From: a virus
Length of the DNA: 12,292 bases
Strand: one strand, 5' to 3'
Virus genome (UHGV): UHGV-0198005
This document shows positions 1,582-10,375 of the stretch, in pieces; position 1 is the first letter of the stretch; each line of letters begins with the position of its first letter. A program made the position numbers and the translations under genes. Below the pieces are notes generated by a model. It was not told the DNA's origin. It ran no database searches and saw nothing but the letters and a program-made list of their open reading frames with translations.

Positions 1582-1606
1582 AGCGGCAGAAATGCCGCTT
1601 TTTTTA
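1582..1606 (+). terminator. Rho-independent terminator (AGCGGCA-GAAA-TGCCGCT + T7)
   Basis: Perfect 7-bp stem, 4-nt loop and TTTTTTT run immediately after the 1320-1571 ORF stop. Confidence 0.6.
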
Positions 1607-1630
1607 TAATTCCATTTCAAATCATCAATA

Positions 1631-1725
1631 TAAAAACGGTGTATACCGTTTAAAAACGGTGGGAACTGTTTTTACCCATATCCGATGATTTACCGTATTT
1701 GTCACCGGAATACACCGGATTCACA
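1631..1725 (+). promoter_or_regulatory. Operator/promoter region upstream of alpA: palindrome AAACGGT-GTAT-ACCGTTT, direct repeat TAAAAACGGTG x2, direct repeat CACCGGA x2
   Basis: Repeats read directly in the sequence (1631-1661 and 1703-1719), in the intergenic region ahead of the alpA start. Confidence 0.35.
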
Positions 1726-1737
1726 AGGTAAATCACG

Positions 1738-1944
1738 ATGGAAGCAATCAGAAAAATTATCTTTCGCCAGGAAGTAAAAAAAATTATCCACATCAAGGCA
1801 GACAGCACGCTGCAAAGCATGATCAACGCCGGAGAATTTCCGCAGGGTTTTCGCGTTGGTTTACGCCGTCGCGGATGGTATGAGGATGATGTGTTGGCCT
1901 GGCAGAAAGAACGCGAACAGGAAGCACGCGGAACGGCTGCTTAA
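1738..1944 (+). CDS. alpA: AlpA-family (phage CP4-57-type) transcriptional regulator / excision activator
   Basis: 68-aa ORF. STLQSMINAGEFPQGFRVGLRRRGWYEDDVLAWQ matches the AlpA-family HTH pattern (..ST.Y.LI.AGEFP....G.R..GW.E.E...W). AAGG Shine-Dalgarno-like motif upstream. Confidence 0.8.
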   Translation: MEAIRKIIFRQEVKKIIHIKADSTLQSMINAGEFPQGFRVGLRRRGWYEDDVLAWQKEREQEARGTAA

Positions 1945-1970
1945 CGGGTATCACAGATATGACAAACACG

Positions 1971-2003
1971 AAAAAAGCGGCCCCGATATGGAGCCGCCTT
2001 TCT
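1971..2003. terminator. Bidirectional intrinsic terminator (GCGGC-N11-GCCGC), strongest for minus-strand transcripts (A6 on the plus strand = T6 on minus)
   Basis: Hairpin 1977-1997 flanked by AAAAAA upstream and CTTTCT downstream, located between convergent alpA (+) and the minus-strand operon ending at 2093. Confidence 0.5.
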
Positions 2004-2092
2004 GAACAATTAACCCGCTGCGCCTTATGTGTATATGATCCCAAACATAAGCACGGGGATGATAGCCGCTATCAGGCTGGTGGGCAATGCAA

Positions 2093-2281
2093 TCAGTCTG
2101 GTTCAGTTCGTTGCCATACCTGCAATGAGCGCTTTTCCCTGTATTCTTTAAGGAATTGCTCAAGGGCAAAAGCACATGGCGCGAATCTTTCTGATTCATG
2201 CTCTATCTTTCTGCGCCGTCTTTTCCGTGCCGGTGATAATGTTTTGGTCAATTCTTTATCGGTCATTGTGTTGTCCTGCAT
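2093..2281 (-). CDS. Hypothetical small basic protein (62 aa), second gene of the minus-strand regulator operon
   Basis: ORF lies 42 bp downstream of the RHH-like gene on the same strand and is followed by the terminator at ~1971-1997. Arginine-rich stretch SPARKRRRRK. No clear ribosome-binding site. Confidence 0.35.
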   Translation of the reverse strand: MQDNTMTDKELTKTLSPARKRRRRKIEHESERFAPCAFALEQFLKEYREKRSLQVWQRTEPD

Positions 2282-2323
2282 AGCAATGCGCCGTAATACC
2301 TTACACCACGGCGCTGATGGTGA

Positions 2324-2629
2324 TTACTCTGGTTCTTTGGTCTTGCGGCGCTGGAGTTCTTCACGTGCGACAGTGACGAGCTGCCCGATCTCCTCGGCGG
2401 CTTTGATTCCGAGTTTTTCCACCTGCGCCAGTGCATCGTGCGAAGAAATCAGGGGGTTTTCTCCGCTTCCTTCTGCCTGGCGGCGGGCGATTTCACCGCG
2501 CATGGCGGTTACTATGAATCCGGCGTTGCTTTCACCGTCCAGTTTTACGGATTCCATGCCTTCAATAACATCATGCGGGATCCGAGCTGTCAGTGATTGT
2601 GATTTTGCGTTTTTTGAACCTGTAGCCAT
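2324..2629 (-). CDS. Ribbon-helix-helix-like DNA-binding protein, candidate island repressor/regulator
   Basis: ATG at 2629 preceded by GAGAGGA; the ORF track's upstream TTG at 2644 is less likely. N-terminal SQSLTARIPHDVIEGMESVKLDG fits the RHH beta-strand/helix pattern (inference from motif, not searched). Divergent from the rightward operon across an operator-rich region. Confidence 0.6.
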   Translation of the reverse strand: MATGSKNAKSQSLTARIPHDVIEGMESVKLDGESNAGFIVTAMRGEIARRQAEGSGENPLISSHDALAQVEKLGIKAAEEIGQLVTVAREELQRRKTKEPE

Positions 2630-2644
2630 CTGTAATCCTCTCAA

Positions 2645-2825
2645 TGAAAGTGTAAGACAATATACACATAAAAAGTCTTACATAAAAGCATTGACATGTA
2701 AGCCACCTATAAATAAAGTTACTTACACCTTGTTAATGCAAGGTGCAGAAACGACGAAACCCCGCACTGTAGGAGCAGTAACGGGGCTTCTAACCACCAA
2801 CGATAGCAAGATTATCGAGGCAGCT
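2645..2825. promoter_or_regulatory. Divergent control region: two similar operators built from TGTAAG half-sites (O1 2651-2682, O2 2697-2728), sigma70-like promoter (TTGACA 2691-2696, 17 bp, TAAAGT 2714-2719) reading rightward, plus IR CACCTTG-N6-CAAGGTG
   Basis: Half-sites and promoter hexamers read directly in the sequence; the arrangement is classic for a repressor-controlled lytic-type operon. Confidence 0.5.
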
Positions 2826-3026
2826 ATGAGAAATTATACCATACACCCGCAAGGGCGGGACTCGTACAACCTGAATAAATACATCTGGCGTTTTATCGCC
2901 CTGAGCACGGCACAACCGCGCGTGATTACCATCGAGGCCACCAGCGAACAGGAAGCGCGTCAGCAATCTCCGGCTGGCTGCGTGATGGTATTTGCTGCCC
3001 GTATTCGTCAGGGGGTAGGCTTATGA
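2826..3026 (+). CDS. Hypothetical protein (66 aa), first gene of the rightward operon
   Basis: GAGG 5 nt upstream of the ATG at 2826; stop overlaps the next start (ATGA). It is the only protein-like part of the otherwise spurious 355-aa ORF 1959-3026. Confidence 0.45.
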   Translation: MRNYTIHPQGRDSYNLNKYIWRFIALSTAQPRVITIEATSEQEARQQSPAGCVMVFAARIRQGVGL

Positions 3027-3253
3027 GCCAGGAAATCACACTACAACAGGCAGCAGAACGCGCCCACCAAATCGAAGTTATTTGCGCACTGGCAGAGGAT
3101 TACCCTGGCATGATGACCGACAGCGAATCAGGGGCAATCATCGGCTTACTTAAACGCCTTAGCGGTGAGGTCTGCGTATTCCTGAGCGATGAACAGGAAA
3201 GAAGAACGCTTATTTCTAACGAAAAAAAATGCGGAGGGGTACATGTGCAATAA
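3023..3253 (+). CDS. Hypothetical protein (76 aa)
   Basis: ORF translationally coupled to the preceding ORF (ATGA overlap); helical, acidic composition. Confidence 0.55.
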   Translation: MSQEITLQQAAERAHQIEVICALAEDYPGMMTDSESGAIIGLLKRLSGEVCVFLSDEQERRTLISNEKKCGGVHVQ

Positions 3254-5982: not shown

Positions 5983-6208
5983 CTGTCTACCCTGTCTACC
6001 TGAGTAAAGAAAAATACATTTAATTCAGTGCATTAAGTTAGGTAGATAGCCTTTTTTTACTGTCTACCCACTATCTACCCTCTCTACCTGATTTTACCTG
6101 AATCAGACAGGGAGGTAGACACGGGGTAGATAGTGGATAAAAGCACTCTACCCCGCTGAAAGCCGCGCCATTACTGGCATGAGGGCCACTAAGGTAGATA
6201 GGTAGACA
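5983..6208. repeat. Iteron-type replication origin: at least 11 copies of an 8-9 bp motif (C)TGTCTACC / GGTAGACA(G) and variants in both orientations around an AT-rich core
   Basis: Copies read directly at 5983-5991, 5992-6000, 6041-6049, 6060-6068, 6071-6079, 6081-6088, 6114-6121, 6125-6133, 6146-6155, 6193-6200, 6201-6208; AT-rich stretch 6001-6040. Placement directly 3' of the primase gene matches P4/PICI ori organisation. Confidence 0.7.
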
Positions 6209-6256
6209 AGGGGAGGCACAACTCAAAACTTTTTAAACGAGGGGGTAAAAATAAAT

Positions 6257-7576: not shown

Positions 7577-8631
7577 TGGCAGTCAAAGCAATGGCACTTA
7601 ACACACACCAGCTTTTCGCGTACCTGAATCGCGAGGATATTGCGGAATTTAAATTTAGTCCGCTGTTTACCGCGCTGTTTTTCCCGAACGTGGCGACATT
7701 CAACACGCAAAACATCATGCTGGATACCCTGGACATTGAAGAAGTCACCATGTCGGCGTTTTGTTCGCCTATGGTGGGTAGCCAGGTTCAGCGCGATAAA
7801 GGGTACGAAACCAGCACGATTAAACCTGGCTACATGAAGCCAAAGCACGAAATCGATCCAACGAAAACCATCATGCGCATGGCTGGAGAAGATCCGGCAC
7901 AGCTTAACGACCCTACCTATCGCCGTATGCGCCTGATTACTGGCAATATGCGCCGCCAGATAAACGCCATAAAAGCGCGCGTGGAATGGCTGGCGGTAAA
8001 TGCGGTAACGACCGGAAAAAACATCATTGAGGGCGAAGGCATAGAGCGCTATGAAATCGACTGGAAGATACCGGAAAAAAACATCATAGAGCAGGCCGAC
8101 GGGAAAAAATGGTCAGAGCAGGACAAAGAAACCCACGATCCAATCTATGATATCGAACTATACGCCGATCAGGCTGGTTGCCCCGCAAACGTCATGATTA
8201 TGGGCGTTGAGGTATGGCGAACGTTACGCAGCTTTAAAAAATTCCGTGAGCTGTACGATCTTTCCCGTGGTTCAGAGTCCGCCGCAGAGCTGGCCTGTAA
8301 AAACCTGGGCGAAGTGGTGAGCTTTAAAGGCTATCTGGGCGATATTGCCCTTATCGTCTATTCCGGCAAATACACTGACAGCGACGGCACAGAAAAATAT
8401 TTCCTTGATCCTGATTTGCTGGTCCTGGGCAACACCAACAACAAAGGGCTGGTGGCCTATGGTGCGATTATGGATCAGGAAGCGGTAAGAACAGGCGCAA
8501 CGCAAAACATGTACTACCCGAAAAACTGGATTGAGGACGGCGATCCGGCGATTGAGTACGTGCAGACGCACAGCGCACCGCAGCCGGTTCCGGCAGATAT
8601 TCGCAAATTTGTTACCGTCAAAATTGCTTAA
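7576..8631 (+). CDS. Major capsid protein, lambda gpE-like (HK97 fold)
   Basis: 351-aa ORF aligning along its length with recalled lambda gpE: FKFSPLFTALFF / FKFDPLFLRLFF; PGYMKPKHEIDP / PGYVKPKHEVNP; EDPAQLNDPTYRRMR / EDPQNLADPAYRRRR; RGSESAAELACKNLGEVVSFKGYLGDIALIVYSGKY / RGSNSELETAVKDLGKAVSYKGMYGDVAIVVYSGQY; YYPKNW..GDPA...SAP. Confidence 0.92.
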   Translation: MAVKAMALNTHQLFAYLNREDIAEFKFSPLFTALFFPNVATFNTQNIMLDTLDIEEVTMSAFCSPMVGSQVQRDKGYETSTIKPGYMKPKHEIDPTKTIMRMAGEDPAQLNDPTYRRMRLITGNMRRQINAIKARVEWLAVNAVTTGKNIIEGEGIERYEIDWKIPEKNIIEQADGKKWSEQDKETHDPIYDIELYADQAGCPANVMIMGVEVWRTLRSFKKFRELYDLSRGSESAAELACKNLGEVVSFKGYLGDIALIVYSGKYTDSDGTEKYFLDPDLLVLGNTNNKGLVAYGAIMDQEAVRTGATQNMYYPKNWIEDGDPAIEYVQTHSAPQPVPADIRKFVTVKIA

Positions 8632-8642
8632 CGGGGGATTCT

Positions 8643-8978
8643 ATGGACACTCCATACATTGAGTTATTTGCAGGCAGTCAGCAGGTATCCACGACGCTGG
8701 TACATTTTGCCGCTGATGCTGGCGTTATTCAGGAATTTACCCCGCTGATGCTGGCGGACAATGGCGAGTTTAAGCCGTGGGATGGTCAGGAATCTGGCAA
8801 GGCTGTTTATCTGACTTCGTACCTCGTGGACACGTCAAAGCAGAAATCAGCACAGTGTTACAAGACGGGGATATTCAATATTGCCGCCGTTAACTGGCCT
8901 GAGAGCGTCGACACCGATGCGAAAAAATGCGCCGCCTTTGCGGGTTCTGGCGTATCCGTTCAGCCGCTGGCCCGATAA
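8643..8978 (+). CDS. Head decoration protein, lambda gpD-like
   Basis: 111-aa ORF with TPLML, WDG, YKTGIFN...WPE and KKCAAFAGSGVSV matching recalled lambda gpD (TPLML..WDG..YKSGTF..WPE..KKRTAFAGTAISIV); similar length (~110 aa). Confidence 0.85.
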   Translation: MDTPYIELFAGSQQVSTTLVHFAADAGVIQEFTPLMLADNGEFKPWDGQESGKAVYLTSYLVDTSKQKSAQCYKTGIFNIAAVNWPESVDTDAKKCAAFAGSGVSVQPLAR

Positions 8979-9432: not shown

Positions 9433-9609
9433 GCGGGTCCTTCCTGGAATTATGGCCCGTTACGGGGCGGCGACCTCGCGGTTTTTCGCTATTTATGAGC
9501 TTTTTCAGGGGGGTGGTGGTGGTTTTGTTGTTTGCTCTATCTTTATGAATGAAAAGGGAAAGATGCAAACAATACACCAACCTGAAGCAGTAATTAAGTT
9601 GGTGTATTA
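9433..9609 (+). other. Lambda-type cohesive end site cos1 (cosQ-cosN-cosB); cosN 12-nt overhang GGGCGGCGACCT at 9465-9476; cosB diverged from lambda
   Basis: TTACGGGGCGGCGACCTCGCGGTTTTTCGCTATTTATGA matches the recalled lambda cos junction (ACGGGGCGGCGACCTCGCGGGTTTTCGCTATTTATGAAAA) almost base for base, then diverges. Lies directly upstream of the Nu1-like gene as in lambda. Confidence 0.8.
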
Positions 9610-10152
9610 ATGAAATCGCACCTGATGAACAAAAAAAACATGGCGAAAAGCTGCCGTGTAAGTGCGACAGCGTTCGACAAGTGGGGAGTGACTCCCGTTG
9701 AACGTAAAGGCCGTGAGGCGTTTTACGATGTTGCCAGCGTGATAGACAATAGGGTTAACAATGCAATTAGCCAGCTTACAAACGACAAAGGCGATATTGA
9801 TGATGATGAACTCTTACGAGTCAGGATCAGATTACTGACAGCACAGGCGGAGGCGCAGGAACTTAAAAACGAGCGCGATCGCGGTGACGTGATTGATACT
9901 GAGTTTTGCCTGTACGCGCTTTCAAAGCTGGCGAGTCAGATTTCATCAATCATGGACAGCCTCCCGCTTACTATGCAAAGGAGCTTCCCACAGATTACCC
10001 CCGCCATGCTGGATAGGCTTAAAAGGGAAGTGGTTAAAGCCTGTAATGCCAGTGCCAGAGTTGCCGACAACCTCCCACAGATACTGGCTGATTACTTGAA
10101 AGAAACAACCGGAAACGTACCGGAAAAGTTGCTACAGAAGAAAGGCGAGTAA
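9610..10152 (+). CDS. Terminase small subunit homolog, lambda Nu1-like (candidate Rpp-type packaging-redirection protein); true start may be the ATG at 9625
   Basis: LTAQAEAQELKNERDRGDVIDTEFCLYALSKLASQISSIMDSLPLTMQRSFPQ aligns with recalled lambda Nu1 LTRAQADAQELKNARDSAEVVETAFCTFVLSRIAGEIASILDGLPLSVQRRFPE; N-terminus MNKKNMAKS.. parallels Nu1 MEVNKKQLADIF. No large-terminase gene follows. Confidence 0.85.
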   Translation: MKSHLMNKKNMAKSCRVSATAFDKWGVTPVERKGREAFYDVASVIDNRVNNAISQLTNDKGDIDDDELLRVRIRLLTAQAEAQELKNERDRGDVIDTEFCLYALSKLASQISSIMDSLPLTMQRSFPQITPAMLDRLKREVVKACNASARVADNLPQILADYLKETTGNVPEKLLQKKGE

Positions 10153-10159
10153 CAGACGC

Positions 10160-10375
10160 GCAATTATTGAACAAAACTGAGAAACGACATGAAAGCGTCA
10201 TAAATCGCCATTTTAGATGATTACCGTGTCGTTTCTTTTTATTGTGTATCTATTTAAAAACAAATAGTTATGTTCGAGAAGTACCGACATGCTTTTTCCA
10301 GAAAAATTTTCATAAACAGATAAAAACCGCGAGGTCGCCGCCCCGTAACGGGTCCATAATTCCAGGAAGGACCCG
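10160..10375 (-). other. Second lambda-type cos site (cos2) in inverted orientation; cosN at 10332-10343 on the minus strand, with lambda-like cosB elements (R-site-like GAAACGACA / TGTCGTTTC, TTTATGAAAATTTT)
   Basis: Reverse complement of 10322-10375 is CGGGTCCTTCCTGGAATTATGGACCCGTTACGGGGCGGCGACCTCGCGGTTTTT, identical to cos1 apart from one indel. Continuing on the minus strand, TTTATGAAAATTTTTCTGG, CATAACTATTTGTTTTTAAATAGA and AAAGAAACGACAC...TGTCGTTTCTC parallel recalled lambda cosB (R3/I1/R2/R1 region). Confidence 0.7.

Follow-up and report, generated by a model that had tools for sequence, protein, structure and literature searches.

A candidate ribbon-helix-helix immunity cassette encoded antisense to a conserved open frame in an Escherichia coli phage-inducible chromosomal island

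The gene layout int/alpA/primase/capsid/terS characterizes the phage-inducible chromosomal islands (PICIs) of Gram-negative bacteria, which were defined on the element EcCICFT073 (PMC6092414). AlpA is the activator of EcCICFT073; it activates a fusion to the downstream open reading frame (ORF) ORF3 and suffices for induction, and the global repressor of EcCICFT073-type islands was termed 'unclear' in this 2018 work (PMC6092414). In a 2023 survey, the same zone was described as Bro-network genes and immunity RNAs (PMC10111431). No description of a ribbon-helix-helix (RHH) or YlcI-type repressor in PICIs was found in the literature searched. Here, we report on the region between the alpA-type gene and the replication operon in a DNA stretch of 12,292 nucleotides (the window) from the virus genome UHGV-0198005.

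The other close point of reference is P4. According to its sequence record, P4 kil is the C-terminal part of a longer ORF, eta, which begins at the end of the alpA homologue vis. The eta ORF holds a constitutive promoter, the seqA/isrK element, and the CI (C4) immunity RNA. It is translated solely from the upstream late promoter, in a manner coupled to the alpA homologue, and this translation prevents termination (PMC10111431).

The window is an EcCICFT073-type PICI of E. coli Nissle 1917. Its region 1950-2900 is 100% identical to the corresponding sequence of E. coli Nissle 1917 and related strains; parts of this region are present in 1,680 of the 5,426 complete E. coli genomes searched; in 371 of the 1,680, coverage reaches 80% or more. 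The Nissle 1917 copy is an island adjoining tRNA-Pro, with the annotated order integrase, alpA-type regulator, switch region, Icd-like gene, small ORFs, DUF4222, primase, SSB, major capsid protein, decoration protein, and small terminase. The alpA-type gene product gave a weak match to Phage_AlpA (E = 0.0035), which is under the Pfam cut-off. Comparison with the sequence of EcCICFT073 revealed the same module, in which an alpA-like gene and a small ORF are accompanied by an Icd-like gene on the plus strand and by a minus-strand gene for a 59-aa YlcI/YnfO protein. The analysis also drew on 11 loci from other species in the genome collection (all Enterobacterales apart from a contig labelled Pseudomonas lundensis), on several E. 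coli genomes, and on 80 loci from IMG/VR (individual loci are denoted below by L numbers).

On balance, we regard the region as the probable immunity and induction switch of this Gram-negative PICI, with a leftward RHH repressor gene lying antisense within a long plus-strand frame. Both strands appear to be used, rather than being alternatives to each other.

Two inverted repeats built of TGTAAG half-sites lie between the RHH gene and the Icd-like gene. The proximal one is a perfect inverted repeat of 8 bp, its arms TGTAAGAC (2651-2658) and GTCTTACA (2675-2682) being 16 nt apart; the arms of the distal one are TGTAAG (2697-2702) and CTTACA (2722-2727), separated by 19 nt. The motif TGTAAG occurs 10 times in the 12.3-kb window on both strands; four of these occurrences fall within 77 bp here, in the order +,-,+,-, and this paired arrangement was found nowhere else in the window. 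The conserved -10 element of the leftward promoter (TATATT, minus strand, 2664..2659) falls within the proximal operator, and the distal operator reaches from the -35 end to approximately position +1 of the rightward promoter, which it partly overlaps and partly adjoins. With a score of 10/12, the predicted rightward promoter was the best promoter-like site detected by the promoter scan in 1600-3100. It is consensus-like, lies inside the long plus-strand ORF, and is conserved in position, with TTGAC at the same offset in nearly all related loci. The two TGTAAG operators (2651-2682 and 2697-2728) and the overlapped sigma70-like rightward promoter (TTGACA-17-TAAAGT) of the original prediction were both recovered in this analysis. 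A repressor seated over this promoter would make functional sense, since a near-consensus promoter here would drive a Kil-family gene and the primase.

One intergenic geometry was observed across loci, namely proximal half-sites around the leftward -10 element (TATACT/TATATT), then TTGAC, then distal half-sites at the rightward start. Within this geometry, the half-site sequence varies with residues 9-19 of the RHH protein: 13 strand variants were distinguished, each with a distinct half-site at fixed positions. A part of these 13 strand/half-site combinations is as follows: SLTARI and SVTARI occur with GTGTAAGAC; LTTVRV and LFTVRV with GTGTTTCA; KQISIRI with TGTGATTCA; MTTIRV with TGTATATCAC; IKNVR with GTGTGCAT and GTGTGTAT; QLNARF with GTGCGATTCA; ALKARV (EcCICFT073) with GTGGGCCAC; and TVAARV with GTGTTCAACAC. 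The proximal position in most specificity types combines the type-specific half-sites with a conserved CAGTATACA(C)-like element. In O157:H7, a 57-aa Arc-like RHH protein of unrelated appearance takes this place and has TGGTAATTACC repeats of its own. Half-sites and the strand that would read them change together across the types, as is expected of an immunity repressor and its operators, and this co-variation provides strong comparative evidence for a predicted repressor-operator immunity module. Together with the presence of the same module in EcCICFT073, the co-variation of the 13 types also makes the master repressor switch, as proposed in the original prediction, the best reading of the region.

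The leftward protein was labelled as a YlcI/YnfO family protein in RefSeq and matched the complete profile (1-42/42) of NCBIfam NF041551 (YlcI_YnfO_N) with E = 1.9e-20 and 72.6 bits (cut-off 30). In the predicted model, an N-terminal RHH domain (residues ~9-53) is followed by a long C-terminal helix (59-98). The strand-helix-helix fold of ~45 residues is present in the monomer model, whose best structural matches were Rv0298 (47/50 residues, 2.0 A), TacA1, the PutA RHH domain (43/44, 2.0 A), CopA, and MazE6. No Pfam family was found for this protein at E<=1, DUF3950 included. Profile searches of PDB sequences matched no RHH chain, Foldseek with the model gave nothing at E<=0.001, and tblastn of the regulator against GenBank phages gave no match. 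Relatives of the protein are sometimes named 'Arc-like' or 'CopG family' in databases. The family and structural matches bear out the RHH-like nature that had been suggested for the leftward product. Residues 60-85 (LISSHDALAQVEKLGIKAAEEIGQLV) are weakly helix-hairpin-helix-like (Hef nuclease, E = 0.022) and form part of one long helix in the model; the short family members of 59-61 aa lack this C-terminal region.

To assess selection on the RHH gene, 28 distinct alleles of 101 codons were joined in a minimum spanning tree, along which substitutions were counted. Three-base periodicity was unusable for telling the two strands apart, because the long plus-strand frame shares its third codon positions with both minus-strand genes; the analysis relied on mutation classes and BLOSUM scores instead. 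Substitutions at RHH codon positions 2, 1, and 3 numbered 30, 78, and 215, respectively (order 2<1<3). Third-position changes per opportunity amounted to 0.52 for those synonymous in the RHH frame only, 0.24 for those synonymous in the plus frame only, and 0.69 for those synonymous in both. The mean BLOSUM62 score of replacements was +0.33 in the RHH frame, that is, conservative, and -1.03, or random-like, in the plus frame. These data show that the RHH frame is under protein-level selection. The possibility that the RHH ORF is itself the shadow of a true plus-strand protein was ruled out by the NF041551 match, the mutation classes, the structural matches, and the operator co-variation.

The original prediction had noted a 355-aa ORF on the plus strand, and this frame indeed exists at 1959-3026. 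Its ATG (1959) lies 14 nt past the alpA stop. From here, the frame crosses the small ORF and the repressor gene in antisense orientation, continues over the operators, the promoter, and the leader RNA, and ends, in frame, as the Icd/Kil-like gene (2826-3026). Among 73 distinct related sequences, only 2 had a stop in this frame anywhere within the regulator, and the frame was open in 16 of 17 regulator representatives sharing <88% nucleotide identity with each other. When synonymous codons were resampled, the predicted openness was P=0.05-0.38 with E. coli usage and 0.12-0.65 with the gene's own codons. In the 170 nt of operator, promoter, and leader, the long frame contained zero stops in 34 of 38 distinct sequences; the other two frames over the same 170 nt had means of 4.6 and 4.4 stops and were never open. 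Other genes of the window served as a control; their equivalent antisense phase held between 1.3 and 6 stops per 100 codons, except for one ORF of 93 codons, which has none.

The start of the long ORF is also maintained in the relatives, where its ATG lies 8-14 nt past the alpA stop behind a good Shine-Dalgarno sequence (e.g. TAAAGGGGAGCATATG) or overlaps the stop codon. At the other-species loci without the small ORF, the open stretch still extends for 380-690 nt upstream of the regulator, and unrelated cassettes likewise keep the long frame in register with the Icd/Kil-like gene. These observations show that the long frame is selected for openness, not for amino-acid sequence. Any function must lie in translation rather than in the product, because the domain-less sequence evolves almost freely. 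A real 355-aa ORF had been regarded in the original prediction as contradicting a leftward repressor; what was found instead is a selected open frame with an alpA-adjacent start and a nested Icd/Kil gene.

RefSeq annotates 1959-2438 of the window as an incomplete 'Icd-like' pseudogene overlapping the YlcI gene on the other strand. Annotation pipelines evidently trip over the two-strand arrangement, since the start of the long ORF is called a pseudogene. In two loci from other enterobacteria (L005 and L013), with ~400 nt between alpA and the regulator, the plus-frame translation repeats similar segments (GCTALQHT..KSRS..Y.DIG), which suggests repeated DNA elements in the place where E. coli has the small ORF.

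The Icd-like gene is the first gene after the rightward promoter and forms the C-terminal part of the long frame. P4 Kil (65 aa) matched the same family model, NF033153, with E=1.6e-21. Pairwise BLASTP of P4 Kil against the Icd-like protein found nothing, and the homology rests on the family model. In tblastn against GenBank phages, the Icd-like protein gave one match, located in a 16.5-kb induced element. The PHROG families phrog_6196 and phrog_1743, which represent the Icd-like family, are labelled 'transcriptional repressor'. This label probably stems from the old annotation of the P4 ORF overlapping the CI RNA as 'cI gene product' and is likely to be misleading.

The relationship between the window and P4 is made explicit by E. 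coli strain 167 (L100, NZ_CM132952.1), because a single frame of this strain spans both the RHH cassette and isrK/C4. Positions 1852-3141 of this sequence carry the RHH cassette and the P4-type isrK and C4 RNAs in tandem within one 429-aa frame. The order along the frame is the post-alpA start, a variant of the small ORF and a 59-aa RHH gene (both antisense), operators, the window-type leader, isrK plus C4, and the Icd-like end; the junction lies ~20 codons into the window-type Icd-like gene. An RNA of the P1 c4 / P4 CI type would be expected upstream of an Icd-like gene, as is true of P4 and strain 167, but is absent here: an Rfam search for C4, isrK, and c4-a1b1 in the window gave none even at E<=10, and the same search found all three in P4 and strain 167. 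We read the window as a P4 eta/kil-type nested read-through frame that would carry an opposite-strand repressor where P4 has RNA immunity.

Features of the switch region and their positions in the window (strand '.', no strand assigned)
Feature	Coordinates	Strand	Details
alpA-type activator/excisionase gene	1738..1944	+	RefSeq: helix-turn-helix transcriptional regulator; phrog_66 and phrog_2790 (excisionase/regulator)
Long stop-free frame	1959..3026	+	355 codons; positional counterpart of P4 eta; ORF list
Intrinsic terminator of the leftward operon	2003..1971	-	14-pair stem + T6; strong (terminator scan)
Small Arg/Lys-rich protein, second gene of the leftward operon	2093..2266	-	57 aa (62 aa if from 2281)
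Candidate RHH repressor, YlcI/YnfO family	2324..2629	-	101 aa; ATG at 2629; Shine-Dalgarno GAGAGGA
Proximal operator (predicted)	2650..2683	.	GTGTAAGAC, 16 nt, GTCTTACAT; inverted repeat
Rightward promoter (Icd-like gene, replication operon; predicted)	2691..2719	+	TTGACA (2691-2696), 17 nt, TAAAGT (2714-2719)
Distal operator (predicted)	2696..2729	.	ATGTAAG, 19 nt, CTTACAC; inverted repeat
Structured leader of the rightward transcript	2726..2820	+	Minimum free energy -32.1 kcal/mol, z = -3.1
Icd-like gene	2826..3026	+	NF033153, E=1.4e-19

The second leftward gene had been predicted as a 62-aa ORF located 42 bp past the RHH gene. The ORF (2093-2281, minus strand) and its spacing of 42 nt from the repressor stop stood, while the length did not: the start that relatives conserve is the second ATG, at 2266, which is preceded by AGGA at a distance of 7 nt and gives a protein of 57 aa. 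In the relatives, the start is always 57 nt past the regulator stop. The small protein matched phrog_21027 (unknown function) from residue 6 onward (E=1.6e-15) and is annotated as hypothetical in L003, L097, and L100. Its family is limited to E. coli and Shigella (36 clusters) and is mosaic with a conserved core, EHESERFAPCAFALEQFLKEY. The protein is predicted as two helices (pLDDT, a model confidence score, 71). Replacements in the small ORF are more conservative than those in the plus frame (mean BLOSUM62 -0.24 vs -1.14); the mutation-class rates are 0.4-0.85 in all classes, as obtained on mosaic, saturated alignments. Judging by the conserved start and the BLOSUM contrast, the small ORF is probably real.

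The small protein of EcCICFT073 is identical to that of the window. Proteins 97-100% identical to it stand beside four repressors: the 101-aa protein with TGTAAG, a 101-aa protein with GTGTTTCA (L004), the 59-aa protein of EcCICFT073, and the 57-aa Arc-like protein of O157:H7. The ORF is missing from 11 of 11 other-species loci and from many E. coli loci that keep the RHH protein. No toxin, Pfam, NCBIfam, or PADLOC defence match was found for the small protein, and no structural match. With low confidence, we consider it an accessory protein that may be co-expressed with the repressor in the quiescent state.

The leftward unit ends in an intrinsic terminator, as had been suggested, with 14 pairs and T6 at 2003..1971 on the minus strand. 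The hairpin is kept in L002. In the plus-strand reading, the sequence after the hairpin is just CTTTCT, and the hairpin itself falls within codons 5-15 of the long ORF. Between the repressor stop and the start of the small ORF, a 7-bp stem (GCGCCGT/ACGGCGC; 2288-2314) encloses a 13-nt loop holding a fifth GTGTAAG. The stem also occurs in EcCICFT073 and O157:H7, with the loop GTGTGAG in spite of different operators. Since the loop is kept where the operators differ, this stem seems to be part of the small-ORF module rather than an operator.

The leader of the rightward transcript comprises a 5' hairpin (2726-2745), a bipartite hairpin (2756-2790), a single-stranded conserved TTCTAACCACC (2788-2798), and a third hairpin (2801-2817), which abuts the Shine-Dalgarno sequence of the Icd-like gene. 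Compensatory changes were detected in 8 of 13 pairs and supported the second and third hairpins. In the leader alignment, 93% of cells were paired, and the covariation of 0.306 compared with 0.097 in shuffled alignments (0/500 reached the observed value) and 0.02-0.095 in slid ones. No Rfam family was found for the leader at E<=10, in the whole window or in 2600-2900, and no site complementary to TTCTAACCACC was present in the window.

The following sequence of events would account for these features. In the quiescent state, the RHH protein would be made from a weak leftward promoter and bind the two operators, whose half-sites match its beta-strand. Occupation of the distal operator would keep the rightward promoter, the Icd/Kil-like gene, and the primase operon off; occupation of the proximal one would cover the repressor's own -10 element and result in autoregulation. 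The leftward transcript would carry the 57-aa accessory protein as well and stop at 2003-1971. By analogy with P4 and in line with the published EcCICFT073 data, induction would begin with a helper phage turning on alpA. The alpA transcript would run on into the long ORF, which has its own ribosome-binding site directly after alpA. Ribosomes on the long frame would then trail RNA polymerase through the terminator hairpin, the antisense genes, and the operators into the Icd-like gene, and their translation would protect the transcript from termination, as that of eta does in P4. Such read-through would bypass the repressed promoter, and the convergent transcription would hamper repressor synthesis. 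This induction route agrees with the published activation of an ORF3 fusion and of replication by AlpA alone (PMC6092414); ORF3 of EcCICFT073 presumably corresponds to the long ORF described here.

Several observations weigh against this reading. AlpA alone sufficed to explain induction in the published work (PMC6092414). The leftward promoter has no recognisable -35 element and was not called by the promoter scan. The half-site centres are 25-26 bp apart (~2.5 helical turns), which is unusual for a simple dimer-of-dimers, and the repeats are differently arranged in EcCICFT073 and strain 167. As for the long ORF, its Shine-Dalgarno sequence is weak in the window, and no domain was found by Pfam and NCBIfam save the Icd end, in a sequence that evolves almost freely. 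A stop occurs in the frame in 4 of 38 intergenic sequences, the frame ends ~20 nt short of the Icd start in a large group of loci, and it is interrupted in L009 and L010.

An alternative that we consider unlikely assigns importance to the minus-strand unit alone; the 355-aa frame on the plus strand would then be a 'shadow' or chance ORF and have no role. An antisense frame with coinciding third positions may be open by chance, at the probabilities of 0.05-0.38 per gene given above, and the plus-frame protein is unconstrained and domain-less. The same antisense frame is also open over 91 codons inside K-12 ylcI; there, however, it closes within 50 nt outside the gene. In the islands, by contrast, openness persists in 16 of 17 diverged regulators, in 34 of 38 sequences through non-coding DNA where the other frames never open, and over 380-690 nt upstream of the regulator in other-species loci that have no small ORF. 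The Shine-Dalgarno sequence and ATG directly after alpA and the common frame with the Icd/Kil-like gene across unrelated cassettes argue in the same direction.

The RHH protein could also be aimed mainly at the helper phage or at other loci, such as helper late genes or packaging, with the local sites being only autoregulatory. YlcI and YnfO lie in lambdoid prophages, where ylcI is divergent from nohD (terminase small subunit) and the cos region, and PICIs are known to interfere with their helpers (PMC6092414). Nevertheless, both operators are local, the paired TGTAAG arrangement is confined to this place in the window, and in all specificity types the distal operator extends over the rightward promoter from -35 to +1. 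Diversification of the 13 specificities goes hand in hand with that of the local sites, a pattern typical of self-immunity, so that we judge the helper-directed role to be improbable. The original prediction had further pointed to a resemblance to an antitoxin-toxin pair. A type II pair that stabilises the island, with operators serving only its own autoregulation, would agree with the gene order, the upstream operators, and the best structural matches, which are RHH antitoxins (MazE, TacA, Rv0298, and CopA) of a similar layout with an RHH domain plus a C-terminal helix. This resemblance was not borne out by the second gene: the small protein has no toxin, defence-family, or structural match. 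A cognate pair is also argued against because the small protein accompanies four RHH proteins and is often missing, many elements having the RHH protein and operators only. Two of these four partners, those of 57 and 59 aa, are without the C-terminal helix needed to neutralise a toxin, and the divergent promoter of the replication operon lies under one of the operators, an arrangement needless for an autoregulator of this kind. We therefore regard a toxin-antitoxin function as very improbable.

The preferred reading remains the two-strand immunity and induction switch. Its extension to Gram-negative PICIs at large is more tentative, and we would put it forward as a possibility somewhat short of an even chance. 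These islands, EcCICFT073 included, would possess a master repressor, that is, a diversifying RHH protein with heteroimmune operators, whose gene lies antisense in a translated read-through frame; AlpA-driven transcription coupled to this translation would circumvent the repressed promoter and, by convergence, silence the repressor gene as well.

Two other places in the window deserve mention. Inverted copies of ~75 nt (9434-9505 and 10303-10375; 88-96% complementary) flank the small-terminase-like gene (9610-10152). They contain GGGCGGCGACCTCGCGG, which we take to be the cohesive-end (cos) sequence of phage lambda and which is also present upstream of nohD in the K-12 prophage DLP12. For packaging, a pair of oppositely oriented cos-like sites would be an odd arrangement. 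Direct and inverted CTGTCTACC-type repeats (families of 21 and 14 nt) were revealed in the stretch that separates the primase gene from the next ORF (5983-6213), with a 16-nt inverted repeat at 6065-6139 within the cluster. This cluster, which gave a spurious Rfam match to mir-135, probably represents the iterons of the island's replication origin.

The module described here supplies a candidate repressor, predicted operators, and predicted immunity types for EcCICFT073-type islands. What appears to be new is P4-type nested read-through control with an antisense-encoded protein immunity cassette, of the RHH type, inside it. The long frame crosses two antisense genes, predicted protein-binding sites, and a structured RNA, and offers an unusually clear natural example, relevant to the debate on overlapping genes, of a frame conserved for openness rather than for its product. 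If the proposed switch is true, it is built on two conserved genes that overlap in antisense, one of them selected for nothing but translatability. PICIs of this type and strain Nissle 1917 are under development as engineered delivery vehicles, in which edits of this region would affect the functions of both strands.

Among known systems, type II RHH antitoxins (MazE, TacA, CopA, and Rv0298) share with the candidate repressor the fold of the N-terminal domain and the layout of the C-terminal helix. They differ from it in the partner gene: no cognate toxin was found here, and the downstream gene is interchangeable and dispensable. The uncharacterised K-12 proteins YlcI (DLP12) and YnfO (Qin) share the N-terminal NF041551 domain, and YlcI matches DUF3950. 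The protein from the window falls below the Pfam threshold for DUF3950 and has an extra C-terminal helix. The K-12 genes reside in lambdoid prophages beside a terminase gene and cos, not in a satellite switch.

The immI region of P22 has the RHH proteins Mnt and Arc acting at Pmnt/Pant. It resembles the window in having a small RHH repressor with a C-terminal helical extension, encoded divergently from the promoter that it represses; an operator overlaps this promoter, and the repressed operon starts with small regulatory or toxic genes. The window protein differs in having no detectable sequence match to solved RHH proteins. Its two predicted operators are 32 bp long with widely spaced half-sites, in contrast to the single operator of 17-21 bp in P22, and nothing like the antisense read-through frame is known from P22.

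The position of the cassette between int/alpA and the replication module is shared with Stl/Rpr of the Staphylococcus aureus pathogenicity islands (SaPIs) and other Gram-positive PICIs, in which divergent regulatory genes likewise keep the island quiescent (PMC6092414). Stl is a larger helix-turn-helix protein that is co-transcribed with int and inactivated by helper proteins, whereas the candidate repressors of the type described here are RHH proteins of 59-110 aa. Induction of EcCICFT073 proceeds via activation by AlpA, unlike the anti-repression of Stl (PMC6092414).

The most extensive likeness is that to P4, with which the window shares the order of an alpA/vis homologue, a long ORF at its stop, a constitutive-looking internal promoter, which is a predicted one in the window, a nested Kil/Icd ORF of ~65 aa, and the primase operon. 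The ORF containing P4 eta (214 aa, 8168-8812) possesses a Phage_ASH domain (PF10554, E=4.5e-23), whereas the long ORF of the window is without a Pfam family and that of EcCICFT073 shows a sub-threshold trace of Bro-N (E=0.069). In the window, unlike in P4, a repressor gene, a second gene, and a terminator are located on the opposite strand inside the long frame. P4 immunity is conferred by RNA (CI/C4 plus seqA), which acts by transcription termination, whereas the immunity of the island studied here would rely on a predicted protein repressor.

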